Assembly: GCF_036507355.1 (NCBI RefSeq) | Contig: NZ_AP027877.1 | From: Escherichia coli | GTDB taxonomy: Bacteria > Pseudomonadota > Gammaproteobacteria > Enterobacterales > Enterobacteriaceae | Strand: one strand, 5' to 3' | Length of the DNA: 64,000 nucleotides | Shown here: piece by piece, positions 1 to 34,243 of the stretch | How the letters are laid out: the number at the start of each line of letters is the position of its first letter | How positions within the stretch are numbered: position 1 is the first letter of the stretch | Program-made: the position numbers and the translations under genes | Notes under the pieces: model-generated | Database searches by the model: none | What the model was told of the DNA's origin: nothing | Seen by the model: the letters and a program-made list of their open reading frames with translations, nothing else

Positions 1-512
<512 letters not shown>

Positions 513-553
513 TCACATCACCTGTGACAGGCTTTGTGTGTTTTGTGGGGTGC

Positions 554-1669: not shown

Positions 1670-3224
<1,555 letters not shown>

Positions 3225-3234
3225 TGCAGTGAAA

Positions 3235-3358
3235 TGCCGGATGCGGCGTGAACGCCTTGTCCGGCCTACAAAACTGAAACGCATGTAGGCCTGATAAGAC
3301 GCATCAGTGTCGCATCAGACAGTTGTTGTCGGATAAGGCGTGAAAGCCTTATCCGTCC
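3235..3358. repeat. REP/BIME cluster (three REP units) in malE-malF intergenic
   Basis: GCCGGATGCGGCGTGAACGCCTTGTCCGGCCTACA and inverted copies; classic REP palindromes. Confidence 0.85.
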
Positions 3359-3377
3359 TGGAATGAGGAAGAACCCC

Positions 3378-15232: not shown

Positions 15233-16582
15233 ATGTCTGAAATTGTTGTCTCCAAATTTGGCGGTACCAGCGTAGCTGATTTTGACGCCATGAACCGCAG
15301 CGCTGATATTGTGCTTTCTGATGCCAACGTGCGTTTAGTTGTCCTCTCGGCTTCTGCTGGTATCACTAATCTGCTGGTCGCTTTAGCTGAAGGGCTGGAA
15401 CCTGGCGAGCGATTCGAAAAACTCGACGCTATTCGCAACATCCAGTTTGCCATTCTGGAACGTCTGCGTTACCCGAACGTTATCCGTGAAGAGATTGAAC
15501 GTCTGCTGGAGAACATTACTGTTCTGGCAGAAGCGGCGGCGCTGGCAACGTCTCCGGCGCTGACAGATGAACTGGTCAGCCACGGCGAGCTGATGTCGAC
15601 CCTGCTGTTTGTCGAGATCCTGCGCGAACGCGATGTTCAGGCACAGTGGTTTGATGTACGTAAAGTGATGCGTACCAACGACCGATTTGGTCGTGCAGAG
15701 CCAGATGTAGCCGCGCTGGCGGAACTGGCCGCGCTGCAGCTGCTCCCACGCCTCAATGAAGGCTTAGTGATCACCCAGGGATTTATCGGTAGCGAAAATA
15801 AAGGTCGTACAACGACGCTTGGCCGTGGAGGCAGCGATTATACGGCAGCCTTGCTGGCGGAGGCTTTACACGCATCTCGTGTTGATATCTGGACCGACGT
15901 CCCGGGCATCTACACCACCGATCCACGCGTGGTTTCCGCAGCAAAACGCATTGATGAAATCGCGTTTGCCGAAGCAGCAGAGATGGCAACTTTTGGTGCA
16001 AAAGTACTGCATCCGGCAACATTGCTACCCGCAGTACGCAGCGATATCCCGGTCTTTGTCGGCTCCAGCAAAGACCCACGCGCAGGTGGTACGCTGGTGT
16101 GCAATAAAACTGAAAATCCGCCGCTGTTCCGCGCGCTGGCGCTTCGTCGCAATCAGACTCTGCTCACTTTGCACAGCCTGAATATGCTGCATTCTCGCGG
16201 CTTCCTCGCGGAAGTTTTCGGCATCCTCGCGCGGCATAATATTTCGGTAGACTTAATCACCACGTCAGAAGTGAGCGTGGCATTAACCCTTGATACCACC
16301 GGTTCAACCTCCACTGGCGATACGTTGCTGACGCAATCTCTGCTGATGGAGCTTTCCGCACTGTGCCGGGTGGAGGTGGAAGAAGGTCTGGCGCTGGTCG
16401 CGTTGATTGGCAATGACCTGTCAAAAGCCTGCGGCGTTGGCAAAGAGGTGTTCGGCGTACTGGAACCGTTCAACATTCGCATGATTTGTTACGGCGCATC
16501 CAGCCATAACCTGTGCTTCCTGGTGCCCGGCGAAGATGCCGAGCAGGTGGTGCAGAAGCTGCATTTTAATTTGTTTGAGTAA
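15233..16582 (+). CDS. lysC: lysine-sensitive aspartokinase III LysC (449 aa)
   Basis: ORF track; MSEIVVSKFGGTSVADFDAMNRSADIVLSDANVRLVVLSASAGITN... Confidence 0.98.
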   Translation: MSEIVVSKFGGTSVADFDAMNRSADIVLSDANVRLVVLSASAGITNLLVALAEGLEPGERFEKLDAIRNIQFAILERLRYPNVIREEIERLLENITVLAEAAALATSPALTDELVSHGELMSTLLFVEILRERDVQAQWFDVRKVMRTNDRFGRAEPDVAALAELAALQLLPRLNEGLVITQGFIGSENKGRTTTLGRGGSDYTAALLAEALHASRVDIWTDVPGIYTTDPRVVSAAKRIDEIAFAEAAEMATFGAKVLHPATLLPAVRSDIPVFVGSSKDPRAGGTLVCNKTENPPLFRALALRRNQTLLTLHSLNMLHSRGFLAEVFGILARHNISVDLITTSEVSVALTLDTTGSTSTGDTLLTQSLLMELSALCRVEVEEGLALVALIGNDLSKACGVGKEVFGVLEPFNIRMICYGASSHNLCFLVPGEDAEQVVQKLHFNLFE

Positions 16583-16726
16583 TATTTCCCTACTGGCGTA
16601 TAACGCTCACCAATTGTTATACGCCATCCTCACTGAAAACATAGATTAAATAATATCTGAAAAGCAAAATCACTCCTGTAGAACAGTATTATAACCACCG
16701 AAAAATATCATTTAACAGGAGTGTTA

Positions 16727-17656
16727 ATGGCTACTTTAATGGAAAAGGATGCACTTTTAAACGGCGCCAGTCAGTGCATCGCGTTTTTATCAAATATCGT
16801 CGACAGTTGTTTTTCCTCACAAGTTCAGGACTCAGACGATGAGCTATCACAATTAGTCAGCTATCGCGACAATCTTTATTCCACTCCAGCAGAAATTGTT
16901 GATTTTACACAGGGAATGTTACGCCTCCAGCAGGTCAGAAAAAAGTATCAGCGTGAATTTAATAATACTGCGCATTCAGAAAATAAAGCGTCTTTTGATT
17001 CTATTTGGCAGCGTCTGACAAACCATGACGTCACATCCCAGCAGAGTCCCATTGGTTTTGTTTTAGGTGGACAACCAGGAGCCGGAAAATCCATCCTAAT
17101 CGAATTAGCAAAAAGGGAAACAAAGAATAATATAATGATTATTAATGGTGATGATTTCAGATTTCTACACCCTGATTTTAATTATATATATCAAACTTAT
17201 GGCGACGATTTTGTTACCCATACGGCAAAATTTTCCGGCGAAACGGTCGAACGTGCAATAGAGAGGGCCATAGCCAATAAACTCAATATTGTTGTCGAAG
17301 GAACATTTCGTAATGCCGCTACGCCGCTACAAACATTAAAAAAACTCAAAGATGCAGGCTACCGAACAGAAGTCATGATAAAAACCACCTCAGCGGCATT
17401 AAGCTGGGAAAGCACCAACGAACGGTATAATAAGGACAAAGAGGCGGGAAATATCGCCCGCAAAGTGGATAAAAATCACCATGATATCGTCACCGATTTG
17501 CTAGCAGAAAATGCCAGCAAGGTGTTTGCTTCAAACCTGGCAGATAAGTTTGCGGTGTATTCGCGTGAGAAGATGATATTTAGTTCACAAGCGGCAACCA
17601 ATTGCGATATTGCAACGCTTATACAAAATGAAATCAGCGGAAGTGCACAAGAATAA
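16727..17656 (+). CDS. zeta-toxin-family P-loop kinase with ~100-aa N-terminal extension (EzeT-like single-chain toxin/antitoxin candidate)
   Basis: ORF 16721..17656; ATG at 16727 preceded by AGGAG; Walker A GGQPGAGKS followed by motifs resembling zeta/PezT UDP-GlcNAc kinases (INGDDFR..HP, EGTFR); AT-rich codon usage; not part of the K-12 lysC-yjbD arrangement as I recall it. Confidence 0.7.
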   Translation: MATLMEKDALLNGASQCIAFLSNIVDSCFSSQVQDSDDELSQLVSYRDNLYSTPAEIVDFTQGMLRLQQVRKKYQREFNNTAHSENKASFDSIWQRLTNHDVTSQQSPIGFVLGGQPGAGKSILIELAKRETKNNIMIINGDDFRFLHPDFNYIYQTYGDDFVTHTAKFSGETVERAIERAIANKLNIVVEGTFRNAATPLQTLKKLKDAGYRTEVMIKTTSAALSWESTNERYNKDKEAGNIARKVDKNHHDIVTDLLAENASKVFASNLADKFAVYSREKMIFSSQAATNCDIATLIQNEISGSAQE

Positions 17657-17688
17657 TAAAAGCTGATGACCTGAAATAACGCCGGGCA

Positions 17689-18489
17689 TCACGCCCGGCG
17701 CATTACCGTCTGGTACAGTAAGCTATCCAGTTTCTTAACGTCCCCTTCTCTACTATCCGGTAACACAGGCGGAATTTCCCCACGCGCCAGTTCCGCATGG
17801 ATAAACGCATGTAGCAATGGACGGCGTGGGCCATATTCCGCTTCACCCGCACGCTGTTTACGTTCCAGTAATTCATCTATTTCTGCGCGTAAGGCCGCAT
17901 CCAACTCACTTCCCGCCAGCAATTCGGAAAAACGCATTGGCGGTACGCCTTTTCCCGCTTCAACCCAACGCACGGCCAGCAACGGACGCAGCACGTAAAA
18001 GTATTTTTTCAGTCGAACTTCATCGCCCTGCAAATATCCGCGGAAGTTTTTCTGCGCCATCGAATAGTAATGCCAGCGCGCACGCAGCGGAGAAAACCAC
18101 GTTGGGACCATTGCCTTAAGCGCCGTTATCGTTTCTTCATCTTGTTGATAGACCACCGGAGAATCCAGCCATTCTATCAGCGTCGGGTTCGCGCCTTTCA
18201 ATAATCCCAGCGCCTTACGCCACTCCCAACCGGAAACATCTAACTCGTCGTCGATGGGCAGCTCAATAACATCGCGCGGTGACTCTACTCGCAGATACCA
18301 TTCCAGCGGGTGAACATACAAAAACCGTACATCGTAGTCGCTGTCGGGCGAGGCAAATCCCCAACCGCGACTCCCCGATTCACAGGCGTACAGTACTTTC
18401 ACATCATACCGCCGTTCAATTTCTTTTAACTGCTGCGATACCCTTTCGCGCATCGCAGCACTGACTCCATTTAATGGCATGTTACTCAC
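17689..18489 (-). CDS. Pol-beta-superfamily nucleotidyltransferase (266 aa), uncharacterised
   Basis: ORF track; ESGSRGWGFASPDSDYDVRFLY = GS-x9-DxD nucleotidyltransferase motif; start overlaps stop of upstream SPFH gene by 4 bp. Confidence 0.7.
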   Translation of the reverse strand: MSNMPLNGVSAAMRERVSQQLKEIERRYDVKVLYACESGSRGWGFASPDSDYDVRFLYVHPLEWYLRVESPRDVIELPIDDELDVSGWEWRKALGLLKGANPTLIEWLDSPVVYQQDEETITALKAMVPTWFSPLRARWHYYSMAQKNFRGYLQGDEVRLKKYFYVLRPLLAVRWVEAGKGVPPMRFSELLAGSELDAALRAEIDELLERKQRAGEAEYGPRRPLLHAFIHAELARGEIPPVLPDSREGDVKKLDSLLYQTVMRRA

Positions 18490-19613
18490 CCTTTGATATT
18501 AACCAACCCGTGCAGAACCTGATCCAGACCGCCAAATACAGAGATGTTATCAATCCGCTCAGCCACTCTCTCCAGCGTTTCCAGCTCTTTTAAACGCAAC
18601 GCTACCGGATTGTTCTCCATGACTTTGGCGGTGTTCAGTAACGAGCGCGTCGCTGCCGTTTCTTCACGTCGGCGAATCACATTCGCCTGCGCAGATTTCT
18701 CTGCCTCAACCAGCTGCGCAAGGATATTTTTCATATCGCCAGGCAGGACGATATCTTTCACCCCTAATGAAGCAATCTCCATACCGAACGGCTTCATGCG
18801 CGATTTCACCTGTTCGCTGACAACGTCATCAATGACCTGTTTATCTTCCAGCAATTCATCCAGCGTACGCGTACCTACCACTTCACGCAGTGCAAATTGC
18901 AATTCCCGATACAAATGATCAATCGGCTTCGTTAACTGACTAAATGCTAATAACACGTCGCTGTAGCGCCAGTTAGCCGCGAGGTTAATCCGCAGATTGA
19001 CCTTATCTTTCGTTAAGATTTCTTGCCCGCTGACTTCCAGTACCTGCAAGCGGGTGTCAACCACTTCAGCTTCAACCAGATGGTTAATTTTCCAGTACGC
19101 GGTAAGCCCCGGCGGTAACAGCGCCTGCGTTTCACCATCGATTTTCAGCACGCCTACATGCCAGGCCGGAACCTGCACCGTCAGTATCGCATCGCGGCCT
19201 TTAACAACTCCTTTGCGCCGTGGCTGTAATACCGCATTCATCACCTCCGTTTGTACCGGGACTTGCTGCGTATTCATCCGCACCAGCGTCAAATCATCCT
19301 CTACACGCCAGTACAAACGACGCGTTGATGGCGGCAGGATCTCCAACAAAATACCGTCCATATACAACACCCCGGCTTCAGTCTCCGACAAGTCTGCCAC
19401 CAGGCAATATTTCTCCACCCAATCAGGCTGAAAGCGGCGCAAATAATCCGCAAGCACGTCGGGAACTTCGCTACCATCCAGCGTAATCAGCAACACTTCC
19501 GGGGTATTTAACCAGGGTAAAATATGCTCGCCTGCATGCAGCACTTTGTAGTAATCGCCGTTTCTGGAGAGTAATGCCAGCTGATCTTTTCTTACGCTTA
19601 TTTTTTTAATCAT
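18486..19613 (-). CDS. SPFH/band-7 (stomatin/flotillin-like) domain protein without obvious N-terminal TM helix (375 aa)
   Basis: ORF track; C-terminal half has band-7 hallmarks (GMEIASLGVKDIVLPGDMKNILAQLVEAEKSAQANVIRRREETAA...LRLKELETLERVAERI); hydrophilic N-terminus. Confidence 0.7.
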   Translation of the reverse strand: MIKKISVRKDQLALLSRNGDYYKVLHAGEHILPWLNTPEVLLITLDGSEVPDVLADYLRRFQPDWVEKYCLVADLSETEAGVLYMDGILLEILPPSTRRLYWRVEDDLTLVRMNTQQVPVQTEVMNAVLQPRRKGVVKGRDAILTVQVPAWHVGVLKIDGETQALLPPGLTAYWKINHLVEAEVVDTRLQVLEVSGQEILTKDKVNLRINLAANWRYSDVLLAFSQLTKPIDHLYRELQFALREVVGTRTLDELLEDKQVIDDVVSEQVKSRMKPFGMEIASLGVKDIVLPGDMKNILAQLVEAEKSAQANVIRRREETAATRSLLNTAKVMENNPVALRLKELETLERVAERIDNISVFGGLDQVLHGLVNIKG

Positions 19614-20141
19614 TATCTATTCCTTGCTTAATAGCCGTCGCGGAAGCAGACACGAAGCGACAGGGGAATTCCCTTTTGCCTGTTACCCGGCATCTTTATC
19701 GGCGACGTTATCGGGGACCGCAGACTGCGCAATCCCTCATTTTTTATTTAATAAGTTACAACCAGTATTCATTTCAGGAATGAATGTGGGAATCGAACCC
19801 GTAATTGGCGTCAAAGGCTGATGGAACACGCCCGGAAAACAGCCTGGCCGTTCCTGGTGTGCCGACGGGGTTTAACCCCCTTTGTAATTCAGTATCAACG
19901 CAAAAGTGTTATTGCGAGAAGCGTGCCAGAAGTGATAAAAAATTTTAATTACATGAAAAATAAAGATTTAATAAATCATTATTGTTTGTAGGGGGAGATT
20001 TTTTCGCTAAATTTGTATCTGTATTTATCGTCAATTATCAAGAAAGATAAATATTTAAGAAGAGAACAAAGGAATATTATCAGTTCTGCTTGCAAATAAA
20101 TTCCCGTACACTGAACTATCCGATTAACAGAGGGCACCATC

Positions 20142-20414
20142 ATGGCACTCCCCCGTATTACTCAAAAAGAGATGACTGAGCGTGAACAGCGCGAACTGAA
20201 GACGCTGCTGGATCGCGCGCGTATTGCACATGGTCGCGTGCTGACCAACGCCGAAACCAACAGCATTAAGAAAGAGTACATCGATAAATTAATGGTCGAG
20301 CGTGAGGCTGAAGCGAAAAAAGCCCGCCAGTTAAAGAAAAAGCAGGCTTATAAACCGGATCCTGAAGCGTCATTTAGCTGGTCAGCAAATACGTCGACGC
20401 GCGGCAGGCGCTGA
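20142..20414 (+). CDS. yjbD: DUF3811 protein YjbD (90 aa)
   Basis: ORF track; MALPRITQKEMTEREQRELKTLLDRARIAHGRVL... Confidence 0.85.
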   Translation: MALPRITQKEMTEREQRELKTLLDRARIAHGRVLTNAETNSIKKEYIDKLMVEREAEAKKARQLKKKQAYKPDPEASFSWSANTSTRGRR

Positions 20415-21287
20415 TTAGCGCCCCTTCTTTTTACGCCCCGGCGAGGTAAAACGCTTACCGTTGGACGCCGGGCGACCGCCTTTTTCCGCCGTTTTTTCCA
20501 TCTTAACGACTGGACGTTTGATGCCCGCCGTTTTCGGTTTAGCCTTCGCTTTAGGTTTTGCCTCGGAAGAGGAATTTTCAATGAGCTTAAAGAGGTCGAT
20601 TAACTCATCGTCGGTTAAATCGCGCCACTCCCCCAGTGGAATGCCGTTTAAGCTGACGTTCATAATGCGCGTACGTTCCAGCTTTTTCACTTCATAGCCG
20701 AAATGCTCGCACATGCGCCGGATCTGACGGTTCAGCCCCTGCACCAGGGTAATGCGGAAGACAAACGGCGCTTCTTTTTTGACTTTGCACTTTTTAGTCA
20801 CCGTCCCGAGGATCGGCACCCCCGCCCCCATACCACGAATAAATTCATCGGTAATCGGTTTATCGACCGTCACCAGATACTCTTTCTCATGATCGTTACC
20901 CGCACGGAGGATCTTATTCACCAGATCGCCGTGATTGGTGAGGAAAATCAGCCCCTGGGAGTCTTTATCCAGGCGGCCAATCGGGAACACGCGTTTGCTG
21001 TGGTTAACAAAATCGACAATGTTATCGCGCTCGCCATCTTCGGTGGTGCTGACAATACCGACGGGTTTGTTCAGGGCGATAAGTACCAAATCTTCGGCTT
21101 CCCGAGGCTCAATCAACTGACCGTTTACTTTCACAACGTCGCCGGGTTTCACCTGATCGCCAATGGTGGCTCGCTTGCCATTAAGGAACACATTGCCTTG
21201 CTCGATATAGCGATCCGCTTCGCGGCGTGAGCAAATTCCGCTTTCGCTGATGTATTTATTTAAACGGACTGATGAGTCGGGCAGCAT
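20415..21287 (-). CDS. rluF: 23S rRNA pseudouridine synthase RluF (290 aa)
   Basis: ORF track; S4 domain plus RluA/RsuA catalytic motif ([22 protein letters not shown]); Lys-rich C-tail. Confidence 0.93.
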
Positions 21288-21634
21288 AAATTCTCCTGTA
21301 AAACGCGGAATATACCGTACCTCTTAGCGGGGAAAAACAGGGTTATGCGGCAACGTCGAAATTAAATGTGATCTGCCACGCCTTTTATCACAAAAGTGTC
21401 TCCGGAAGTACAATGCAAATTTGCCTGGCAAAATAAGGATAATCAACATATTACGAATCGCTGCACACCTGTGCTGATGACTACTGCGCAGAGAAACAAA
21501 TGTGCAAGAGAAAGCGCTATTTCTCCCCATGCAAAGAGTGAAAAATCGCTTTGAAAGGCCATCATGATGGGGTTATATCAGATCAAGCGGTGAGAAAGCG
21601 TATTTGCACAAATGTGCAGAACCAGGAGGCGGCA

Positions 21635-22582
21635 ATGGAAAACAGTGACGATATCCGTTTGATTGTGAAGATTGCCCAACTCTATTACGAACAGGATATG
21701 ACGCAGGCGCAAATCGCGCGCGAACTGGGTATTTACCGCACCACCATCAGCCGCTTGCTTAAACGAGGCCGCGATCAGGGAATTGTCACCATCGCCATCA
21801 ACTATGACTACAACGAAAATCTCTGGCTCGAGCAGCAACTGAAGCAAAAGTTTGGCCTGAAAGACGTTGTGGTGGTGTCGGGAAATGATGAGGATGAAGA
21901 GACTCAACTGGCGATGATGGGGTTACACGGCGCGCAACTGCTGGATCGCTTGCTGGAGCCTGGCGATATTGTCGGTTTTTCCTGGGGTCGCGCGGTGAGC
22001 GCACTGGTTGAAAACTTGCCGCAAGCGGGGCAATCGCGGCAGTTAATCTGCGTGCCAATTATTGGCGGACCGTCCGGTAAACTCGAAAGCCGCTATCACG
22101 TAAACACATTAACCTACAGCGCGGCAGCGAAGCTGAAAGGGGAATCGCATCTCGCGGATTTTCCGGCTCTGCTGGATAACCCCTTAATTCGTAATGGGAT
22201 CATGCAGTCTCAGCACTTTAAAACCATCTCTGCCTACTGGGATAATCTGGATGTCGCCCTGGTGGGAATTGGCTCACCGGCCATTCGCGACGGCGCTAAC
22301 TGGCATACGTTTTATGGTGGTGAAGAGAGTGACGACCTGAATGCCCGCCAGGTTGCTGGCGATATTTGCTCGCGCTTTTTTGATATTCACGGCGCAATGG
22401 TTGAAACGAATATGAGCGAAAAAACACTCTCTATCGAAATGAATAAATTAAAGCAGGCACGATATTCAATTGGCATTGCCATGAGTGAAGAAAAATACAG
22501 CGGAATTATTGGTGCACTGTGTGGAAAATATATTAATTGTCTGGTAACGAATAGCAGCACAGCTGAACTATTACTGAAATAA
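21635..22582 (+). CDS. sorC: SorC-family transcriptional regulator of the sorbose operon (315 aa)
   Basis: ORF 21551..22582; start taken at MENSDDIRLIVKIAQLYYEQDMTQAQIARELGIYRTTISRLLKRG (HTH) preceded by AGGAGG; C-terminal sugar-binding domain. Confidence 0.85.
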   Translation: MENSDDIRLIVKIAQLYYEQDMTQAQIARELGIYRTTISRLLKRGRDQGIVTIAINYDYNENLWLEQQLKQKFGLKDVVVVSGNDEDEETQLAMMGLHGAQLLDRLLEPGDIVGFSWGRAVSALVENLPQAGQSRQLICVPIIGGPSGKLESRYHVNTLTYSAAAKLKGESHLADFPALLDNPLIRNGIMQSQHFKTISAYWDNLDVALVGIGSPAIRDGANWHTFYGGEESDDLNARQVAGDICSRFFDIHGAMVETNMSEKTLSIEMNKLKQARYSIGIAMSEEKYSGIIGALCGKYINCLVTNSSTAELLLK

Positions 22583-22651
22583 AAATCTTCCCGATGTTTA
22601 TCGTAATAAAAATTACGGCGGGTCCCTATTATCTAAAATCAGGAGTCTGTT

Positions 22652-23458
22652 ATGCAAACGTGGTTAAATTTGCAGGATAAAATCATTATCGTCACCGGCG
22701 GCGCATCCGGTATTGGTCTGGCGATTGTAGAGGAATTATTAGCACAAGGCGCGAATGTACAGATGGTCGATATTCACGGTGGCGATGGACAATATGAAGG
22801 TCATAAAGGCTATCAGTTTTGGCCGACCGATATTTCCAGCGCCAAAGAGGTAAATCATACGGTAGCGGAAATTATCCAGCGTTTTGGTCGCATCGACAGT
22901 CTGGTCAATAACGCCGGGGTCAATTTCCCGCATCTGCTGGTCGATGAGAAAGCGCCTGCCGGGCAGTATGAACTCAACGAAGCTGCATTCGAAAAAATGG
23001 TCAATATCAACCAGAAAGGCGTTTTTCTGATGTCGCAGGCGGTGGCGCGACAGATGGTCAAACAACATGATGGCGTGATTGTGAATGTTTCCTCAGAAAG
23101 TGGACTGGAAGGCTCAGAAGGACAAAGCTGTTACGCCGCTACCAAAGCCGCGCTCAATAGCTTCACGCGCTCCTGGTCGAAAGAATTGGGTAAACACGGT
23201 ATCCGTGTGGTCGGTATCGCGCCGGGGATTCTGGAAAAAACAGGACTGCGCACGCCGGAATATGAAGAAGCGCTGGCGTGGACGCGCAATATCACCGTCG
23301 AGCAGCTGCGTGAAGGCTATACCAAAAACGCCATTCCTATTGGGCGCGCCGGTAGATTAGCAGAAGTCGCTGATTTTGTTTGTTATCTGTTGTCTGAACG
23401 CGCCAGCTACATCACCGGAGTAACCACTAACATTGCGGGCGGCAAAACGCGCGGCTAA
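22652..23458 (+). CDS. sorD: short-chain dehydrogenase SorD (D-glucitol-6-phosphate dehydrogenase-like, 268 aa)
   Basis: ORF track; TGGASGIG Rossmann motif, YAATKAA catalytic motif; second gene of sor operon. Confidence 0.85.
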   Translation: MQTWLNLQDKIIIVTGGASGIGLAIVEELLAQGANVQMVDIHGGDGQYEGHKGYQFWPTDISSAKEVNHTVAEIIQRFGRIDSLVNNAGVNFPHLLVDEKAPAGQYELNEAAFEKMVNINQKGVFLMSQAVARQMVKQHDGVIVNVSSESGLEGSEGQSCYAATKAALNSFTRSWSKELGKHGIRVVGIAPGILEKTGLRTPEYEEALAWTRNITVEQLREGYTKNAIPIGRAGRLAEVADFVCYLLSERASYITGVTTNIAGGKTRG

Positions 23459-23467
23459 GGAGGCTTT

Positions 23468-23875
23468 ATGGTCAACGCCATTTTTTGTGCCCACGGCAAA
23501 TTAGCTTGCGCCATGCTGGAATCGGTTCAGATGGTTTACGGCAACGCCAATGTTGAAGCCGTTGAATTTGTGCCCGGTGAAAACGCCGGAGACATCGTAG
23601 CAAAGCTGGAAAAGTTAGTAAGCATTCACAATCAAGATGAGTGGCTGATTGCCGTGGATTTACAGTGCGGCAGCCCGTGGAATGCGGCAGCGATGCTTGC
23701 GATGCGCAATCCTCGTCTGCGGGTAATCAGCGGCCTTTCTCTGCCGCTGGCGCTCGAACTGGTTGATAACCAGGACAGCATGAATGTTGATGAACTGTGT
23801 GAACACCTGACGCAAATCGCAAAGCAAACCTGCGTTGTCTGGAAACAACTGGCAACGGCAGAGGAGGATTTCTGA
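23468..23875 (+). CDS. sorF: PTS mannose-family EIIA, sorbose-specific (135 aa)
   Basis: ORF track; size, order and sequence match mannose-family IIA. Confidence 0.85.
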   Translation: MVNAIFCAHGKLACAMLESVQMVYGNANVEAVEFVPGENAGDIVAKLEKLVSIHNQDEWLIAVDLQCGSPWNAAAMLAMRNPRLRVISGLSLPLALELVDNQDSMNVDELCEHLTQIAKQTCVVWKQLATAEEDF

Positions 23876-24369
23876 TGAACATTACGCTCGCCCGCATTGA
23901 TGACCGCCTGATCCACGGTCAGGTCACTACCGTCTGGTCGAAAGTGGCTAACGCCCAGCGCATTATTATCTGCAATGACGAAGTTTATAACGATGAAGTT
24001 CGCCGGACATTATTGCGTCAGGCTGCGCCACCGGGAATGAAGGTTAACGTGGTCAATATTGAAAAAGCCGTCGCGGTGTATCACAACCCGCAATATCAGG
24101 ACGAAACCGTTTTTTATCTTTTCACTCGCCCACAGGATGCCTTAGCGATGGTTCGCCAGGGGGTAAAAATAGACACCCTGAATATTGGCGGCATGGCCTG
24201 GCGGCCCGGTAAAAAACAGTTAACCAAAGCGGTTTCATTAGATGATGATGATATTAACTCATTTCATGAGTTAAATAATCTTGGCGTCATACTGGATTTA
24301 CGCGTCGTAGCGTCAGATCCCTCAATCAATATTATCGACAAAATAAACGAACAGTTAATCGCAAATTAA
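23875..24369 (+). CDS. sorB: PTS mannose-family EIIB, sorbose-specific (164 aa)
   Basis: ORF track; IDDRLIHGQV phospho-His motif of mannose-family IIB. Confidence 0.88.
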   Translation: MNITLARIDDRLIHGQVTTVWSKVANAQRIIICNDEVYNDEVRRTLLRQAAPPGMKVNVVNIEKAVAVYHNPQYQDETVFYLFTRPQDALAMVRQGVKIDTLNIGGMAWRPGKKQLTKAVSLDDDDINSFHELNNLGVILDLRVVASDPSINIIDKINEQLIAN

Positions 24370-24434
24370 ATAATAGCGCCTGTGTACATATGCTTTAACA
24401 GGCAGGGATGACGACACTTAAAAGGTGACAAATC

Positions 24435-25232
24435 ATGGAAATAAGTACCCTACAAATCATTGCTATATTTCTTTTTTCCTGTATTGCCGGAATGGGCAGC
24501 GTGCTGGATGAATTTCAGACTCATCGCCCGTTAATTGCCTGTACGGTGATTGGTTTAATTCTCGGTGATTTAAAAACCGGAATAATACTCGGTGGTACGC
24601 TGGAATTGATAGCTCTCGGCTGGATGAACGTCGGCGCGGCGCAATCTCCGGATTCTGCACTCGCCAGCATAATCTCCGCCATTCTGGTTATCGTTGGTCA
24701 GCAAAGCATCGCCACCGGAATCGCCATCGCGTTGCCTGTGGCTGCGGCAGGCCAGGTGCTGACGGTGTTTGCACGTACCATCACCGTAGTGTTCCAGCAC
24801 GCGGCGGATAAAGCAGCGGAAGAGGCACGGTTTCGCACTCTCGATATTCTGCATGTCTCCGCGCTTGGCGTGCAGGCGCTGCGCGTCGCCATTCCGGCAC
24901 TGATTGTCTCGCTGTTCGTCAGCGCCGATATGGTCAGCAATATGTTAAACGCCATTCCCGAATTTGTGACCCGAGGTCTGCAAATTGCTGGCGGTTTTAT
25001 CGTGGTGGTCGGTTACGCCATGGTGCTACGTATGATGGGCGTGAAATATTTGATGCCTTTCTTTTTCCTCGGTTTCCTCGCAGGTGGCTACCTCGATCTC
25101 AGTCTGCTGGCGTTCGGTGGCGTCGGCGTGATCATGGCCCTGGTCTACATCCAGCTAAATCCACAGTGGCGTAAAGCTGAACCTCAACTCCTGGCCCCCG
25201 CTTCCACCGCCCTTGACCAACTTGACGATTAA
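24435..25232 (+). CDS. sorA: PTS mannose-family EIIC, sorbose-specific (265 aa)
   Basis: ORF track; polytopic membrane protein. Confidence 0.88.
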   Translation: MEISTLQIIAIFLFSCIAGMGSVLDEFQTHRPLIACTVIGLILGDLKTGIILGGTLELIALGWMNVGAAQSPDSALASIISAILVIVGQQSIATGIAIALPVAAAGQVLTVFARTITVVFQHAADKAAEEARFRTLDILHVSALGVQALRVAIPALIVSLFVSADMVSNMLNAIPEFVTRGLQIAGGFIVVVGYAMVLRMMGVKYLMPFFFLGFLAGGYLDLSLLAFGGVGVIMALVYIQLNPQWRKAEPQLLAPASTALDQLDD

Positions 25233-25242
25233 CGGAGCCATC

Positions 25243-26067
25243 ATGGAACAGAGAAAAATTACACGCGGCGATCTGGTGAGCATGTTTCTGCGCTCCAACC
25301 TGCAACAGGCGTCCTTTAACTTTGAACGTATTCACGGGCTGGGTTTTTGCTACGACATGATCCCCGCCATCAAGCGACTTTACCCATTAAAAGAGGATCA
25401 GGTTGCGGCGCTCAGGCGACACCTGGTGTTCTTCAATACCACGCCAGCCGTATGTGGCCCGGTCATCGGCGTCACTGCCGCCATGGAAGAGGCGCGGGCC
25501 AACGGCGCGGAAATTGATGACGGTACCATTAACGGCATCAAAGTCGGCCTGATGGGACCGTTGGCAGGGGTTGGCGATCCACTGGTCTGGGGAACGCTGC
25601 GCCCGATTACCGCCGCGCTCGGCGCATCTCTGGCACTTTCGGGCAACATTCTCGGCCCGCTGCTGTTCTTCTTTATTTTCAACGCGGTGCGTCTGGCGAT
25701 GAAGTGGTATGGCCTACAGCTCGGCTTTCGCAAAGGGGTGAATATCGTCAGCGATATGGGCGGGAATGTGCTGCAAAAACTCACCGAAGGCGCGTCGATT
25801 CTCGGACTGTTTGTGATGGGCGTGCTGGTCACCAAATGGACGTCAATCAACGTACCGTTGGTGGTTTCACAAACGCATGCCGCCGATGGCTCCACCGTCA
25901 CCATGACCGTGCAGAACATTCTCGACCAACTTTGCCCTGGTTTGCTGGCGCTCGGTCTGACGCTACTAATGGTTCGTCTGCTCAACAAAAAAATTAACCC
26001 GGTATGGCTGATTTTCGCCCTGTTTGGCTTAGGGATTATCGGCAATGCGCTGGGCTTCCTGTCCTGA
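25243..26067 (+). CDS. sorM: PTS mannose-family EIID, sorbose-specific (274 aa)
   Basis: ORF 25213..26067; start taken at MEQRKITRGDLVSMFLRS after GGAG. Confidence 0.88.
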   Translation: MEQRKITRGDLVSMFLRSNLQQASFNFERIHGLGFCYDMIPAIKRLYPLKEDQVAALRRHLVFFNTTPAVCGPVIGVTAAMEEARANGAEIDDGTINGIKVGLMGPLAGVGDPLVWGTLRPITAALGASLALSGNILGPLLFFFIFNAVRLAMKWYGLQLGFRKGVNIVSDMGGNVLQKLTEGASILGLFVMGVLVTKWTSINVPLVVSQTHAADGSTVTMTVQNILDQLCPGLLALGLTLLMVRLLNKKINPVWLIFALFGLGIIGNALGFLS

Positions 26068-26118
26068 TTCTTCGCCCCGGCACGACTGCCGGGGCCATCG
26101 CTCAACATGAGGTGGTTT

Positions 26119-27348
26119 ATGAAAACAACAGCTCTGCGTCTTTATGGTAAACGTGATTTACGCCTGGAAACCTTTGACCTTCCTGAAATGCAGGAGGATG
26201 AAATCCTCGCGACGGTGGTCACTGACAGCCTGTGTCTCTCTTCCTGGAAAGAGGCCAACCTGGGTGAAAACCATAAAAAAGTACCCGACGATGTGGCGAC
26301 CAACCCAATCATCATCGGCCACGAGTTTTGCGGCGATATTCTGGCCGTGGGTAAAAAGTGGCAGCACAAATTCCAGCCGGGTCAGCGTTATGTGATTCAG
26401 GCCAACCTGCAACTCCCCGACCGCCCGGACTGCCCCGGCTACTCCTTCCCGTGGGTAGGCGGCGAAGCCACGCATGTGGTTATTCCCAACGAGGTCATGG
26501 AACAAGATTGCCTGCTGGCATACGACGGCGAAACCTATTTTGAAGGCTCGCTGGTTGAACCGCTTTCCTGCGTGATTGGCGCGTTCAACGCCAACTATCA
26601 TCTTCAGAAAGGTAGTTATAACCACACGATGGGGATTCGCCCGCAAGGGCGCATGCTGATCCTCGGCGGCACCGGACCAATGGGGCTGTTGGCGATTGAT
26701 TATGCGCTGCATGGACCCGTTAACCCGTCGCTGCTCGTCATTACCGATACCGACAACGATAAATTGAGTTATGCGCGCAAGCACTATCCATCAGAATCGC
26801 AAACACTGATTCATTATCTCAATGCCACCGATGCAGCATTTGATACGCTAATGGCGCTGAGTGGCGGTCACGGCTTCGATGATATTTTCGTCTTTGTGCC
26901 TAATGAAGGACTGGTGACTCTCGCCTCTTCCTTGCTGGCGACAGATGGTTGCCTGAATTTCTTCGCCGGACCGCAGGATAAACATTTCAGCGCGCCAATT
27001 AATTTCTACGATGTGCATTATGCATTTACCCACTACGTGGGCACGTCAGGCGGCAATACCGACGACATGCGCGCAGCGGTCAAATTGATTGAAGAGAAAA
27101 AAGTGCAGGCCGCAAAAGTGGTAACACATATTCTTGGGCTGAATGCCGCGGGCGAAACCACGCTTGAATTGCCTGCCGTCGGCGGCGGCAAAAAGCTGGT
27201 GTATACCGGGAAATACCTGCCGCTGACGTCACTCACGCAGATTCAGGATCAAGCACTGGCGGCGATTCTGACGCGTCATCAGGGGATCTGGTCCGGTGAG
27301 GCGGAGCAATATCTGCTCACTCATGCAGAGGCAATTTCCCATGATTAA
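26119..27348 (+). CDS. sorE: zinc-dependent MDR-family dehydrogenase SorE (sorbose-1-phosphate reductase-like, ~409 aa)
   Basis: ORF 26107..27348; start taken at MKTTALRLYG; last gene of sorCDFBAME. Confidence 0.85.
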   Translation: MKTTALRLYGKRDLRLETFDLPEMQEDEILATVVTDSLCLSSWKEANLGENHKKVPDDVATNPIIIGHEFCGDILAVGKKWQHKFQPGQRYVIQANLQLPDRPDCPGYSFPWVGGEATHVVIPNEVMEQDCLLAYDGETYFEGSLVEPLSCVIGAFNANYHLQKGSYNHTMGIRPQGRMLILGGTGPMGLLAIDYALHGPVNPSLLVITDTDNDKLSYARKHYPSESQTLIHYLNATDAAFDTLMALSGGHGFDDIFVFVPNEGLVTLASSLLATDGCLNFFAGPQDKHFSAPINFYDVHYAFTHYVGTSGGNTDDMRAAVKLIEEKKVQAAKVVTHILGLNAAGETTLELPAVGGGKKLVYTGKYLPLTSLTQIQDQALAAILTRHQGIWSGEAEQYLLTHAEAISHD

Positions 27349-27509
27349 TCGCACTACTCAACTCTGCATGTCGCTGGCAGGTCGCCGCGGCAACTTCGCG
27401 ACCTGATGTGCGGCTGATTGCTGAAGCGGCCCAATGTGCACGAGAAGGATAAAAAAACATCAGCGCCTTAAGGGGCGCTCAAATTGGTGGCAAAGTACAC
27501 ATTGTTTAT

Positions 27510-27612
27510 GCCGGATGCGGAATAAAGCCTTATTCGGCCTACATAATCTCGAAAATTCAATATATTGCAGTTATCTGGTAGGCCTGGTAAGCGTAGCGCA
27601 TCAGGCAATGCT
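27510..27612. repeat. REP/BIME elements between sorE and pepE
   Basis: TGCCGGATGCGGAATAAAGCCTTATTCGGCCTACA ... GGTAGGCCTGGTAAGCGTAGCGCATCAGGCAATG. Confidence 0.8.
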
Positions 27613-27730
27613 GTGTTTGTCATCAGTCTCAGCGCCCGGTGCAATACGTGACATCGTGAGCCATGTCAGTAAGTGGTTAAATTCGCAGTGGTAGCATGCC
27701 TTCCGTGATTTCTTACTAACCGGAGAAGTA

Positions 27731-28420
27731 ATGGAACTGCTTTTATTGAGTAACTCGACGCTGCCGGGTAAAGCCTGGCTGGAACATGCACTGCCGCTGA
27801 TTGCTGAACAGTTGCAGGGTCGCCGCTCAGCGGTGTTTATCCCTTTCGCTGGCGTAACGCAGACCTGGGATGATTACACAGCGAAAACGGCTGCGGTTCT
27901 TGCTCCGCTGGGTGTTTCTGTCACCGGTATTCATAACGTTGTCGATCCCGTTGCCGCGATTGAAAATGCGGAAATTGTGATTGTCGGCGGCGGGAATACT
28001 TTCCAGTTGCTGAAACAGTGCCGCGAGCGCGGGCTGCTGGCTCCAATTACTGACGTGGTTAAACGTGGTGCGCTGTATATTGGCTGGAGCGCAGGCGCTA
28101 ACCTTGCTTGCCCAACCATTCGTACCACCAACGATATGCCGATTGTCGACCCGCAAGGTTTCGATGCGCTGAATCTGTTCCCGTTGCAAATCAACCCGCA
28201 CTTCACCAACGCGTTGCCGGAAGGCCATAAAGGTGAAACCCGTGAACAGCGTATTCGCGAACTGCTGGTCGTCGCGCCAGAACTGACGATTATTGGTCTG
28301 CCGGAAGGTAACTGGATCACAGTGAGTAAAGGTCACGCTACGCTGGGTGGCCCGAACACCACTTATGTGTTTAAGGCTGGTGAAGAAGCGGTTCCGCTAG
28401 AAGCTGGTCACCGTTTTTAA
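27731..28420 (+). CDS. pepE: alpha-aspartyl dipeptidase PepE (229 aa)
   Basis: ORF track; [41 protein letters not shown]... Confidence 0.95.
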
Positions 28421-28424
28421 GTGA

Positions 28425-28500
28425 ATTGCCGGATGCATGATCCGGCATCTTGTTCATAGTGCCTGATGCGACGCTTGACGCGTCTTATCAGGCCTACAGG
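28425..28500. repeat. REP elements downstream of pepE
   Basis: TGCCGGATGCATGATCCGGCA palindrome plus GCCTGATGCGACGCTTGACGCGTCTTATCAGGCCTACAGG. Confidence 0.75.
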
Positions 28501-28510
28501 ATTCACAATA

Positions 28511-30142
28511 TTAATACTCGTCCCGTCCTTCATCTTCATCCGGCTGTTCCAGCACACTGTAAGCCACCGAACAAAACAGCGAGTTCAGGCGCTGCATATC
28601 TCCCAGTAAGCCTAAATGTAGCGAACTGGTTTCAATGCTCTGCACGTTTTGCTGATGCAGGCGATCGACGTGGGCGTGGGAATAGCGGCGATTAAGAATG
28701 CGAAAACGATGTTTGCTGCGGCGCAAACGACGGGCGCTGGTAACATCCCCAGAGAAGAAAACCGACATTGCCAGTTTTAAATTACTGAGCAATTGCTCAT
28801 AGAGCGCATCCAGTTCCTTCAACCCATCAAGCGAAAATGCCCGCCGTGCTGCCAGCGATTTATCAGCAATTTCGCTGCCCATGCGCTCGACGATATCGGA
28901 GGCCTGTTCAAGGTTGAGCGACATTTCGATGATCTCCGCCCAGCGGCGCGACTCTTCCTCCGCCAGCTCTTCTTTTGGCATCCGCGCCAGATACAGCTTA
29001 ATGGCGGTATAGAGAACGTTGATATCATCTGCCAGCTTACGCAGCTCTTTCTCCTGCCGTGGCTCGCCGTGCATCACTTTATTCAGCCCTTCCATCATCT
29101 GTTCCATGGCGTCGCCAATGCGCAGGGTTTCGCGCGCGGCGTTCGCCAGAGCAAGCGTGGGCGTATCCAGCGCGCTGACATCCAGATGTTTAGGCCGTAG
29201 CTGGGTATCCAGTTCCGGTTCATCGCGAATAATCGTTTTGCAAAACCGTGCCATCGGGTCAACAAATGGCAGCATGACCAGGCAACGTATAAGGTTGTAG
29301 AAGACGTGGAAATAGATCACCAGTTCCGCTTTTGGCAATGACAACCTCCCCATTGTCTCTGCCAGCAAATGGACAAACGGCAGGATAATCAGGCTACCCA
29401 CCAGCTTAAACAGCAAACTACCCAGCGCGACACGGCGGGCTGCGGCATTGGCGGCACTGTTGTTGAGCATCGCCAGCAGGCCGGAACCGAGGTTAGCACC
29501 AATCACCAGACAGAGCGCCACGGGGAAGGAGATAATGCCTGCGGCGGTCAGAGTCGCAGTCAGCAGTACAGCAGCAAGGCTGGAGTAGCTGATAATGGCG
29601 AACATCGCGCCAATCAGCGCATCCAGCAGAATATCGCCGGTCAGCGAGGCAAAGATCACCTGAACGCCGTTTGCCTGGGTGATCGGCGTTACGGCCTGCA
29701 CAATCAACTCCAGCGCCAGCAAAATCAGCCCAAGACCAATACCGACGCGGCCCAGTTGCCCGGCGCGTGACTGTTTGCGTCCGAGGAAAAAAATCACGCC
29801 GATAAAAATAAGTAACGGTGACAGCCAGGATAAGTCGAAGGTGAGAATACGCGCCATTAGCGCCGTCCCGACATCAGCACCCAGCACAATCACCAGAGCC
29901 GGTGCGAGGGCTACCAGATCCTGAGCGACGAACGAGGTCACCAGCATGGTGGTGGCATTACTGCTCTGCACCAGTGCGGTAACGCCGATCCCCGCGCAAA
30001 AGGCGAGCGGCTTCTTTTCGACGCTCCGGCTAAGGACAGTACGCAAACGCGCGCCGAAGACGCGCATTACGCCGGTTCGAACAATATGAGTCCCCCAGAC
30101 CAGCAGGGCGACGGCAGAAAGCAGGTGAAGCAGCGTTAACAC
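28511..30142 (-). CDS. yjbB: putative Na+/phosphate cotransporter-family membrane protein YjbB (543 aa)
   Basis: ORF track; polytopic N-terminal domain plus PhoU-like C-terminal domain. Confidence 0.9.
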   Translation of the reverse strand: MLTLLHLLSAVALLVWGTHIVRTGVMRVFGARLRTVLSRSVEKKPLAFCAGIGVTALVQSSNATTMLVTSFVAQDLVALAPALVIVLGADVGTALMARILTFDLSWLSPLLIFIGVIFFLGRKQSRAGQLGRVGIGLGLILLALELIVQAVTPITQANGVQVIFASLTGDILLDALIGAMFAIISYSSLAAVLLTATLTAAGIISFPVALCLVIGANLGSGLLAMLNNSAANAAARRVALGSLLFKLVGSLIILPFVHLLAETMGRLSLPKAELVIYFHVFYNLIRCLVMLPFVDPMARFCKTIIRDEPELDTQLRPKHLDVSALDTPTLALANAARETLRIGDAMEQMMEGLNKVMHGEPRQEKELRKLADDINVLYTAIKLYLARMPKEELAEEESRRWAEIIEMSLNLEQASDIVERMGSEIADKSLAARRAFSLDGLKELDALYEQLLSNLKLAMSVFFSGDVTSARRLRRSKHRFRILNRRYSHAHVDRLHQQNVQSIETSSLHLGLLGDMQRLNSLFCSVAYSVLEQPDEDEGRDEY

Positions 30143-30361
30143 GAGTTCAGGTTCTCCTTATCGTTATATGTTCCTGAAGCAATTGAATGACCAAAGGACC
30201 GGAAACACGCTGACTGGCATCTTTACTGTGCCTTTTGACATTCGTTTTTCCGGCTAAGATTATTCCAGCCTGTTTCCAGTATAAGTGTTTCATATTAATA
30301 AAGAGACAGGGCACTCATTGAGCGCCCTGTTTGTTGTAAGGAAAAGTGACAGATTTGTGAA

Positions 30362-34045
<3,684 letters not shown>

Positions 34046-34243
34046 ACTTGCTCCCGACACGCTCAACCCAGATTTAATAAAAATTCAACAAACCATACTG
34101 GCATAAACGCATCAGTGGTAAAAGCGACCACCACGCAATATGAGATTTGTTCAACATTAACTCATCGGATCAGTGTGGCAACTATTGCATTACACCACAA
34201 TAAAAATGAAAATGATTTCCACGATACAGAAAAGGAGACTGTC

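Follow-up and report, generated by a model that had tools for sequence, protein, structure and literature searches.

The sorCDFBAME operon of Klebsiella pneumoniae, credited to Sprenger and Lengeler and to Wehmeier and Lengeler (as cited in PMC2831201), and the sor operon of E. coli, characterized in CFT073 (c4981-c4987), EAEC 042 and ST131/ST648 (PMC2831201, PMC2808357, PMC12817954, PMC13410766), are the closest described systems to the locus analyzed here. In the window (the whole 64 kb stretch of E. coli DNA that was analyzed), seven same-strand ORFs, sorC-D-F-B-A-M-E, span positions 21635-27348 and are bracketed by the core genes rluF and pepE, with metH (30362-34066) located about 3 kb away. 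Gene order, protein lengths and the proposed pathway are the same as in K. pneumoniae. The locus of K. michiganensis, whose proteins are 76-96% identical, also shares the gene order and is flanked by rluF and pepE, but carries an intact sdhL-like eighth gene after sorE where the window holds only a scar. The operon of CFT073 shares the locus, the seven genes and the scar after sorE at 94-98% nucleotide identity, and differs from the window by allelic changes only, among them a string of substitutions at SorA residues 251-257. Finally, the eight-gene allele sorCDFBAME-sdhL (E. coli IAI39, PK12 and ST648, cryptic Escherichia, Citrobacter, and Raoultella) matches the window in its first seven genes and flanks, whereas in the window 701 bp of sdhL are gone and a 145-bp segment with REP-like copies has been added. 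The operon in the window is an ordinary copy of a well-studied, already known system, and the original prediction of a complete operon near metH, with the order and sizes known from Klebsiella, was borne out.

Table 1. Features of the sor locus and its flanks (window coordinates; gene starts were chosen to agree with the RefSeq annotation of an occupied site).
Feature	Position	Strand	Description
rluF	20415-21287	-	left flanking core gene, divergent from sorC; NF007784 RluF, 607.5 bits; annotated rluF in RefSeq loci
rluF-sorC control region	21288-21634	+	conserved blocks in five-genus alignment
Distal block AAATGTGATC...CACAAAAGTGT	21364-21399	+	largely invariant across window, PK12, cryptic Escherichia, K. 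michiganensis, C. youngae
Imperfect palindrome TGCACACCTGTGCT	21462-21475		candidate SorC operator; core GCACA..GTGC conserved across genera
Half-site ACAAATGTGCA	21496-21506	+	exact repeat of 21608-21618 (family D3); CAAATGTGCAA invariant across genera
Candidate sor promoter	21551-21579	+	-35 TTGAAA 21551-21556, 17-nt spacer, -10 TATATC 21574-21579; read from sequence
Perfect palindrome TGCACAAATGTGCA	21605-21618		between candidate promoter and sorC ribosome-binding site; invariant in all genera
sorC	21635-22582	+	315 aa; SorC-family regulator, N-terminal helix-turn-helix and sugar-binding domain; PF04198, 266 bits
sorD	22652-23458	+	268 aa; D-glucitol-6-phosphate dehydrogenase, SDR; NF004817, 497.7 bits (cut-off 304)
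sorF	23468-23875	+	135 aa; EIIA(Sor), EIIA-man; TIGR00824, 148 bits
sorB	23875-24369	+	164 aa; EIIB(Sor), PTSIIB_sorb; DDRLIHGQV
sorA	24435-25232	+	265 aa; EIIC(Sor), EII-Sor; TIGR00822, 421 bits
sorM	25243-26067	+	274 aa; EIID(Sor), EIID-AGA; TIGR00828, 471.6 bits
GC-rich 8-bp hairpin CCCCGGCA / TGCCGGGG	26075-26094	+	between sorM and sorE; no U-tract; read from intergenic sequence
sorE	26119-27348	+	409 aa; L-sorbose-1-phosphate reductase, medium-chain Zn-dehydrogenase fold
Eighth-gene scar	27341-27452	+	sdhL-like shikimate 5-dehydrogenase homologue; 5' remnant 27341-27398, 3' remnant 27399-27452
Stem-loop CAGGTCGC ... GCGACCTG	27378-27405	+	3' of sorE; 27378-27385 pairs with 27398-27405; 3' arm starts at deletion junction
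Hairpin AGCGCC-TTAAGG-GGCGCT	27462-27479		terminator-like only on - strand (T-run); A-run precedes on + strand
145-bp segment	27469-27613		absent from eight-gene E. coli allele (PK12); BIME-like
pepE upstream region common to K-12	27641-27730	+	true right junction; homology resumes at 27641-27650
pepE	27731-28420	+	right flanking core gene; NF003642, 357 bits

All seven genes start with ATG, are preceded by a purine-rich Shine-Dalgarno-like stretch, have the length of the RefSeq copies and contain no internal stops, frameshifts or IS elements. The sorF stop overlaps the sorB start (ATGA). Profile searches agreed with the families first proposed (a SorC-type regulator with a Sugar-bind domain, an SDR, EIIA to EIID and a Zn-dehydrogenase). 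SorD, SorF, SorB, SorA and SorM passed curated family cut-offs; the model NF004817 stands for sorbitol-6-phosphate dehydrogenase, and SorD displays both YxxxK (Y161-K165) and the nucleotide motif TGGASGIG. SorE matched ADH_N and ADH_zinc_N weakly; the syntenic RefSeq gene is named sorE, L-sorbose 1-phosphate reductase, and NCBI gives the same name to the exact SorE protein. All seven exact protein sequences are recorded from an E. coli chromosome.

The four permease subunits could in principle have another mannose-family specificity (mannose, fructose/levan, or N-acetylgalactosamine), with "sor" a mere habit of annotation. Indeed, the NCBIfam/Pfam models for IIA to IID are generic for mannose/fructose/sorbose, and several sources name SorB a "fructose" or "mannose/fructose/N-acetylgalactosamine" IIB. 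The exact SorF sequence is named "PTS sorbose transporter subunit IIA". E. coli manXYZ and Bacillus subtilis levDEFG have the same EII architecture (IIA, IIB, IIC, IID), but ManX is a IIA-IIB fusion whereas SorF and SorB are separate, and neither system is linked to sorD, sorE or a SorC-type regulator, all three of which are present in the window. SorB, which carries the predicted DDRLIHGQV motif at residues 9-17, matched K. pneumoniae IIB-Sor (PDB 1nrz) over its full length with 303 bits, nearly twice the scores obtained against the ManX (170) and levan/fructose (141) IIB domains, and SorC matched K. pneumoniae SorC (PDB 2w48) over its full length with 609 bits. Scores for the Aga and Man equivalog models fell below their cut-offs. 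Moreover, the permease genes are flanked by sorD and sorE, both encoding enzymes specific to the sorbose route, and L-sorbose supports growth through the orthologous E. coli operon (PMC2831201) and also induces it (PMC12817954). A different specificity is therefore highly improbable, and the identification as sorCDFBAME stands.

Upstream of sorC, the alignment referred to as five-genus in Table 1, which includes the window, E. coli PK12, cryptic Escherichia, K. michiganensis and C. youngae, revealed several conserved elements. Judging from the sequence, transcription probably starts from the conserved candidate promoter about 50 nt upstream of sorC, with the conserved TGCACA-NN-TGTGCA palindromes as the probable sites of SorC action; the one at 21605-21618 is a candidate repressing SorC operator. 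The block GGTTATATCAGATCA (21571-21585) was invariant in the five genera and in 22 species, while TGCACANNTGTGCA had only two matches in the 64 kb (0.29 expected), both within this control region. The TGTGA half-site in the distal block could be part of a CRP site. A simple scan for promoters missed this conserved candidate and called a promoter-like site at 21385-21414, whose second hexamer is not conserved.

Published work has established the pathway and its induction by L-sorbose in Klebsiella and in E. coli CFT073, ST131 and ST648. By orthology with these, SorF (IIA), SorB (IIB), SorA (IIC) and SorM (IID) would form a mannose-family PTS permease that imports L-sorbose as L-sorbose-1-phosphate. 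SorE would then reduce this compound to D-glucitol-6-phosphate, and SorD would oxidize the latter to D-fructose-6-phosphate, which would enter glycolysis. SorC, encoded by the first gene, would be the sorbose-responsive regulator, and induction by L-sorbose would be expected in this strain too. Cloning of CFT073 c4981-c4987 in DH5alpha allowed growth on L-sorbose (PMC2831201); the primers used map to 21289-21316 and 27349-27378 of the window. In ST131 and ST648 the sor genes were the strongest sorbose-induced genes, and knock-outs and a knock-in gave the expected behaviour (PMC12817954). EAEC 042 has the operon and uses sorbose, and MG1655 does neither (PMC2808357).

A Sor+ phenotype, as had been proposed, is a reasonable prediction for this strain. 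Carriage is no guarantee of it, because Shigella are described as retaining sor DNA yet being sorbose-negative (Lehmacher and Bockemuhl 2007, as cited in PMC2831201). The operon might likewise look intact here and yet be silenced by a missense change or a regulatory fault. In the closest complete genome, an IS1 lies within sorF, and in the protein collection this strain's SorC allele is recorded from a single contig, as is its SorD allele. On the other hand, the genes are uninterrupted, SorF and SorA are common alleles (at least 1000 contigs each), every conserved block of the control region is intact, and the proteins differ from those of the functional CFT073 operon by only 2-10 residues each. 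A silent operon is thus unlikely.

The interval between rluF and pepE (21288-27730) is filled by the operon and its borders, but the part that differs from K-12 is narrower, extending from 21323 to about 27640-27649. In K-12, the operon is absent and the interval measures 211 bp, which identifies the strain as non-K-12; homology to this empty site stops at 21322/21323 and resumes at about 27641-27650. The stem-loop 3' of sorE and the REP elements at ~27.5 kb had been proposed to mark the right junction. Both exist, but neither lies at it. The stem-loop straddles the scar of the sdhL-like gene, lacks a U-tract and lies in a region that folds no better than shuffled sequences (z = -0.41). This scar is a 701-bp internal deletion at 27398/27399 that breaks the frame (stop at 27404-27406); the gapped alignment with PK12 showed 70/80 identities on one side of the gap and 45/52 on the other, and the 3' remnant translates to RPDVRLIAEAAQCAREG* as compared to RPDAQLIAEAAQFAREG* in PK12. 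The same deletion junction is present in CFT073, 08-3914 and Z1323, which makes four E. coli strains with the window. On NF009202, the intact gene reaches 463.8 bits; among 5426 complete E. coli genomes, 177 keep sdhL, which is also intact in other genera. The REP-like copies (27509-27542 and 27578-27607, in inverted orientation; inverted pairs I2 and I3) belong to the 145-bp segment and sit 35-130 bp inside the right junction. Both are degenerate, as neither matched the 34-nt REP consensus with up to three mismatches. The right arm of the hairpin at 27462-27479 also falls in this segment.

The original prediction described the operon as inserted, which would make it a horizontally acquired island that entered an originally empty rluF-pepE region in an ancestor of this strain. 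In line with this, the operon occupies the site in only ~53% of complete E. coli genomes, and one end of the segment has REP-like repeats close by. The K-12 empty site has ~80 nt of its own that the sor locus lacks, which would suit an original empty site, and a 2026 paper leaves open how the operon was acquired (PMC13410766). Nevertheless, no integrase, tRNA, IS element or direct-repeat boundary was found at the locus, and the G+C content of the operon (0.43-0.57) is not distinct from that of the surroundings. Its absence within E. coli is largely confined to phylogroups A and B1; in each other phylogroup, >86% of the genomes have it (PMC12817954). The same position and orientation recur in about ten genera: the rluF-sor-pepE arrangement is shared by Klebsiella, Citrobacter, Raoultella, Pseudocitrobacter, Cedecea, Mangrovibacter, E. 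albertii, and cryptic Escherichia. A divergent rluF precedes sorC in every species-representative locus with upstream coverage (22 genomes from ~ten genera, one locus lacking such coverage), a set made up of carriers of the sor control region that speaks to rluF adjacency and not to the frequency of sor-less relatives. It also does so in separately fetched contigs of Klebsiella, Citrobacter, and cryptic Escherichia. Downstream, pepE-yjbB-metH follows in loci long enough to show it, and the order yjbD-rluF / sorCDFBAME-sdhL-pepE-yjbB-metH was seen in K. michiganensis, Citrobacter, Raoultella, and cryptic Escherichia. Furthermore, the sor genes have diverged as much as the core genes beside them at each phylogenetic depth that was tested, with nucleotide identities of 73-85% (flanks 80-85%) in K. 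michiganensis, 79-86% (81-88%) in C. youngae and 93-96% (92-97%) in cryptic Escherichia. An island is thus disfavoured and rather improbable, and the description as an insertion did not hold.

Taken together, the locus is very probably an intact chromosomal sor operon of the Enterobacteriaceae, with the pathway, regulation and history proposed here. Since synteny with rluF and pepE extends across genera and sor divergence equals flank divergence, this site probably held the operon ancestrally, and its empty form is probably derived. The ancestral form would have had the sdhL-like eighth gene after sorE, removed by a single 701-bp deletion in the lineage leading to most E. coli, this strain included. 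The whole block would have been lost later in K-12-type strains, leaving ~80 nt of unrelated sequence. The K-12 site is not a clean deletion, and as the origin of these ~80 nt could not be traced, recombination with a sor-less donor allele is a possible source of it. On the evidence from synteny and divergence, K-12-like lineages more likely lost the operon than the lineage of this strain gained it.

Between rluF and pepE the window carries seven open reading frames on the + strand in the order sorC-D-F-B-A-M-E, in agreement with the seven co-directional genes of the original prediction (see the table of features). All of them begin with an ATG preceded by a Shine-Dalgarno-like stretch, and the successive intergenic gaps from sorC to sorE are 69, 9, -1, 65, 10, and 51 nt. 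A mechanical ORF list extended sorC, sorM, and sorE to earlier upstream starts; the shorter forms matching RefSeq were used here, and for SorC this choice also agrees with the solved structure (N-terminus MENSDD). Pseudogenisation, which had been raised as a possibility, was not seen, since none of the seven genes contains an internal stop and all have the full length of the reference copies. The stop codon of sorE lies 3.0 kb from metH and the gene order is the same in CFT073, in line with the classical mapping of E. coli sor near metH that is cited in PMC2808357 and PMC2831201. Within the operon, the sorM-sorE spacer contains a perfect 8-bp GC hairpin (CCCCGGCA / TGCCGGGG) without a U-tract, which may have a role in processing or stabilising the mRNA.

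Features of the sor locus and its surroundings (window positions)
Feature	Position	Strand	Remark
lysC	15233-16582		
Block absent from K-12	16721-19613		between lysC and yjbD
yjbD	20142-20414		
rluF	20415-21287	-	left flank
Left junction	21322/21323		K-12 homology stops
Conserved blocks	21364-21399		five-taxon alignment
Conserved palindrome	21462-21475		five-taxon alignment
Conserved half-site	21496-21506		five-taxon alignment
Conserved block GGTTATATCAGATCA	21571-21585		five-taxon alignment
Perfect palindrome TGCACAAATGTGCA	21605-21618		directly before sorC ribosome-binding site; conserved in five-taxon alignment
sorC	21635-22582	+	start codon as RefSeq at occupied site
sorD	22652-23458	+	start codon as RefSeq at occupied site
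sorF	23468-23875	+	start codon as RefSeq at occupied site
sorB	23875-24369	+	start codon as RefSeq at occupied site
sorA	24435-25232	+	start codon as RefSeq at occupied site
sorM	25243-26067	+	start codon as RefSeq at occupied site
sorM-sorE spacer hairpin	26075-26094		
sorE	26119-27348	+	start codon as RefSeq at occupied site
Eighth-gene remnant, first 58 nt	27341-27398		
Eighth-gene remnant, last 54 nt	27399-27452		
Stem-loop 3' of sorE	27378-27385 with 27398-27405		straddles the deletion junction
145-bp segment	27469-27613		absent from eight-gene allele
REP-like inverted pair	27509-27542 and 27578-27607		
Right junction	27641-27650		K-12 homology resumes
pepE	27731-28420	+	right flank
naRNA4 match	28427-28494		between pepE and yjbB
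metH	30362-34066		

The identity of the operon as one for L-sorbose was borne out by every defining feature of the enterobacterial family that can be checked in sequence, and on these grounds the window operon is a member of that known family. Comparison with Klebsiella matched SorC and SorB to solved K. pneumoniae proteins. SorC scored 609 bits against its K. pneumoniae counterpart (2w48), the alignment spanning residues 1-315 in each, and the best match outside Sor was DeoR at 141 bits; curated family models describe SorC as a SorC/DeoR-type regulator with a Sugar-bind domain. SorD is an SDR protein passing the NF004817 sorbitol-6-phosphate dehydrogenase model (497.7 bits; cut-off 304), and PTS components IIA, IIB, IIC, and IID each exceed the cut-offs of TIGR00824, TIGR00854, TIGR00822, and TIGR00828, respectively. 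Family models give SorE a medium-chain (MDR) dehydrogenase fold, and RefSeq gives the name L-sorbose 1-phosphate reductase to the gene in the syntenic position as well as to the identical sequence. Both dehydrogenases of the pathway, glucitol-6-phosphate dehydrogenase (SorD) and sorbose-1-phosphate reductase (SorE), are thus predicted to be present. Another mannose-family specificity of the permease (Man, Lev, or Aga), which had been named as an alternative, is contradicted by SorB, which is closest to K. pneumoniae IIB-Sor (1nrz, 303 bits), followed by the IIB of ManX (170), the levan/fructose IIB (141), and others at 76 or less. The exact sequences of all seven proteins are recorded from one E. 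coli chromosome under names that include 'PTS sorbose transporter subunit IIA' and 'L-sorbose 1-phosphate reductase'.

In the pathway outlined in PMC13410766 and PMC2831201 (citing Sprenger and Lengeler), the PTS takes up L-sorbose as L-sorbose-1-phosphate, SorE reduces this to D-glucitol-6-phosphate, and SorD oxidises the latter to D-fructose-6-phosphate. The function of an E. coli sor operon was tested directly in CFT073 (PMC2831201). Two primers from that work match the window at 21289-21316 and 27349-27378 with 1 and 2 mismatches, so the validated CFT073 fragment is the equivalent of this interval, differing by 2-10 residues in each protein. Among genes responding to sorbose in ST131 and ST648, the seven sor genes showed the strongest induction, and the behaviour of knock-out and knock-in strains was consistent with this (PMC12817954); EAEC 042 has the operon and uses sorbose, and MG1655 does neither (PMC2808357). 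Growth on L-sorbose and induction by it have been demonstrated for orthologues with 94-98% nucleotide identity (PMC2831201, PMC12817954). Since the tested operons are orthologous and differ by few residues, a Sor+ phenotype is a good though not certain prediction for the window strain. According to PMC2831201, Shigella has kept sor DNA and is yet sorbose-negative. In E. coli Z1323CEC0004, at 99.2% the most similar complete genome over the interval, an IS1A lies inside sorF (3242-4011 of its locus L003), so a genome may carry the locus without having an intact operon. Separately, residues 251-257 in the C-terminal tail of SorA (25185-25205) read QLLAPAS in the window and HPQTTTI in CFT073. The equal protein lengths and the run of seven consecutive differences suggest two frameshifts that compensated each other within one lineage. 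Of the two alleles, that of the window is the common one, found on at least 1000 contigs.

In 2865 of 5426 complete E. coli genomes, the site holds at least 80% of window positions 21000-28000. The other matching genomes cover far less of the query, and those listed cover about 10% of it, which is the rluF and pepE flanks only. In a survey of 44,208 genomes, the operon was carried by more than 86% of the genomes of each phylogroup other than A (9.6%) and B1 (12.1%) (PMC12817954). Only 211 bp separate rluF from pepE in K-12 derivatives; the operon is absent there, and the window strain is not K-12. Mapping the junctions against K-12 did not reveal a clean insertion: about 80 nt of K-12 C600 (1824-1903 of its empty site, L002) lie between the junctions and have no match in the sor-bearing loci compared. 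What separates the two alleles is therefore an exchange of 6.3 kb for 80 nt and neither a clean insertion nor a clean deletion. In strict local alignments against five sor loci this filler scored no better than shuffled sequences; in position-anchored alignments against the equivalent regions it reached z values of up to 3.5 in two Citrobacter loci, about 0-2 in others, and 0.2 in the window. It could be filler from a deletion event or the remnant of a different allele.

The claim that the operon was inserted did not hold when contigs carrying near-identical Sor proteins from other taxa were compared. K. michiganensis and two cryptic-clade Escherichia share the order yjbD, rluF (-), sorCDFBAME, an eighth gene, pepE, yjbB, and metH, one of the cryptic-clade loci missing metH and having no gene called at the sorE position. 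The C. youngae contig has the same order through the eighth gene, followed by other genes, and ends before any pepE. A plain-DNA scan of species-representative genomes with a pattern of two invariant control-region blocks, which finds sor-bearing genomes only, retrieved 22 species of Citrobacter, Klebsiella, Raoultella, Pseudocitrobacter, Cedecea, Mangrovibacter, Enterobacter, Erwinia, and Escherichia (including E. albertii). In every one of these loci with upstream coverage rluF adjoins sorC divergently, sorE is followed by the eighth gene and pepE in the three that are long enough, and yjbB and metH follow in the two reaching that far. At every depth compared, nucleotide identity in the sor genes follows that of the flanking core genes: 73-85% versus 80-85% against K. 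michiganensis, 79-86% versus 81-88% against C. youngae, and 93-96% versus 92-97% against cryptic Escherichia. A horizontally inserted genomic island is disfavoured by this flank-like divergence, by the synteny across genera, and by the lack of its signatures at the sor locus, where no integrase, tRNA, IS element, or boundary repeat was found and G+C is unremarkable. Together with the distribution among phylogroups, these observations lead us to favour vertical inheritance of sor at the rluF-pepE site with later loss in lineages including K-12.

The region between sorE and pepE appears to record the loss of a further gene. E. coli PK12 and 176 other complete genomes, including IAI39, carry after sorE an eighth gene of 270 codons whose ATG overlaps the sorE stop and whose product matches the NF009202 shikimate 5-dehydrogenase model (463.8 bits); it is the sdhL of PMC12817954. 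The same overlap occurs in PK12 (L010, 7142-7954), cryptic Escherichia (L009, 15708-16520), and K. michiganensis (L004, 12957-13766), which implies that the gene would be co-transcribed with the sor operon and possibly translationally coupled to it. Gapped alignment against PK12 showed that the window keeps only the two ends of this gene, separated by a 701-bp deletion that breaks the reading frame; the 3' remnant translates as RPDVRLIAEAAQCAREG* in the window and RPDAQLIAEAAQFAREG* in PK12. The window operon is the common E. coli allele, seven genes plus an sdhL scar. CFT073, 08-3914, and Z1323 share exactly the deletion junction AACTTCG|CGACCTGATG of the window, from which we infer a single old event. 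In PMC12817954, sdhL was induced by sorbose, was unique to ST648 among the sequence types studied, and was listed under 'ST-specific insertions'. On the basis of its synteny in other genera and of the scar, we argue for the opposite polarity, in which sdhL would be ancestral and deleted in most E. coli. A further reading is that the seven-gene operon is a truncated ancestral sorCDFBAME-sdhL in which SdhL had a real role with sorbose or a related ketose or polyol, lost in most E. coli through the single 701-bp deletion; we regard this as tentative and rather unlikely.

Neither of the elements proposed as marks of the right junction has that position. The stem-loop 3' of sorE straddles the sdhL deletion junction, has no U-tract, and lies in a region that folds no better than shuffled sequence. 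An intrinsic terminator after sorE is likewise without support from a terminator scan, which returned no + strand sites in 27349-27730. The REP-like inverted pair (GCCGGATGCG...GGCCTAC ends) lies inside the 145-bp segment, and K-12 homology resumes only beyond it. Both copies are degenerate: each has more than 3 mismatches to the 34-nt consensus, which detects four further REPs in the window. An Rfam scan of 19500-30500 returned nothing within the sor interval. Its one notable hit, between pepE and yjbB, was to naRNA4 at 47.1 bits, below the gathering score of 59.5; since naRNA4 derives from REP, the match probably marks one more REP/BIME.

When the rluF-sorC spacers of five taxa were aligned, several conserved elements stood out. 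The pattern TGCACANNTGTGCA occurs twice in the 64 kb, both times in the sor control region, against 0.29 occurrences expected. TTGAAA (21551-21556) and TATATC (21574-21579), separated by a 17-nt spacer, are the likely candidate for the sor promoter, with transcription predicted to start near 21586, and the palindromes are likely candidate operators for SorC. A promoter-like site called by a scanner at 21385-21414 was discounted as the main promoter, since beyond E. coli its -10 hexamer is not conserved. In C. youngae (L006, ~6745-6870) the spacer has an extra ~125 nt directly after the rluF start that other genera do not have, perhaps a small repeat element.

Upstream, between lysC and yjbD, lies a second block that K-12 lacks; the two genes are ~250 nt apart in K-12. 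It contains three ORFs of 311 aa (+), 266 aa (-), and 375 aa (-), the last of which is an SPFH/Band_7 protein (96.5 bits). In K. michiganensis the lysC-yjbD interval has RlaP, Band_7, and SBF-like genes, two of them close in size to the window ORFs.

Descriptions of the operon, its pathway, map position, absence from K-12, and patchy distribution go back to the 1980s-90s, with renewed study in 2010 and 2025-2026; what is mildly new here is the evidence that the operon was an ancestral resident later lost, together with the identification of the sdhL scar. As a strain marker, the locus indicates a strain that is not K-12 and is probably Sor+. The literature calls sdhL a lineage-specific insertion, and the scar carried by most E. 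coli is a possible correction to this. An ancestral locus with later loss would also bear on recent work presenting the operon as an 'acquired' fitness factor enriched in pathogens.
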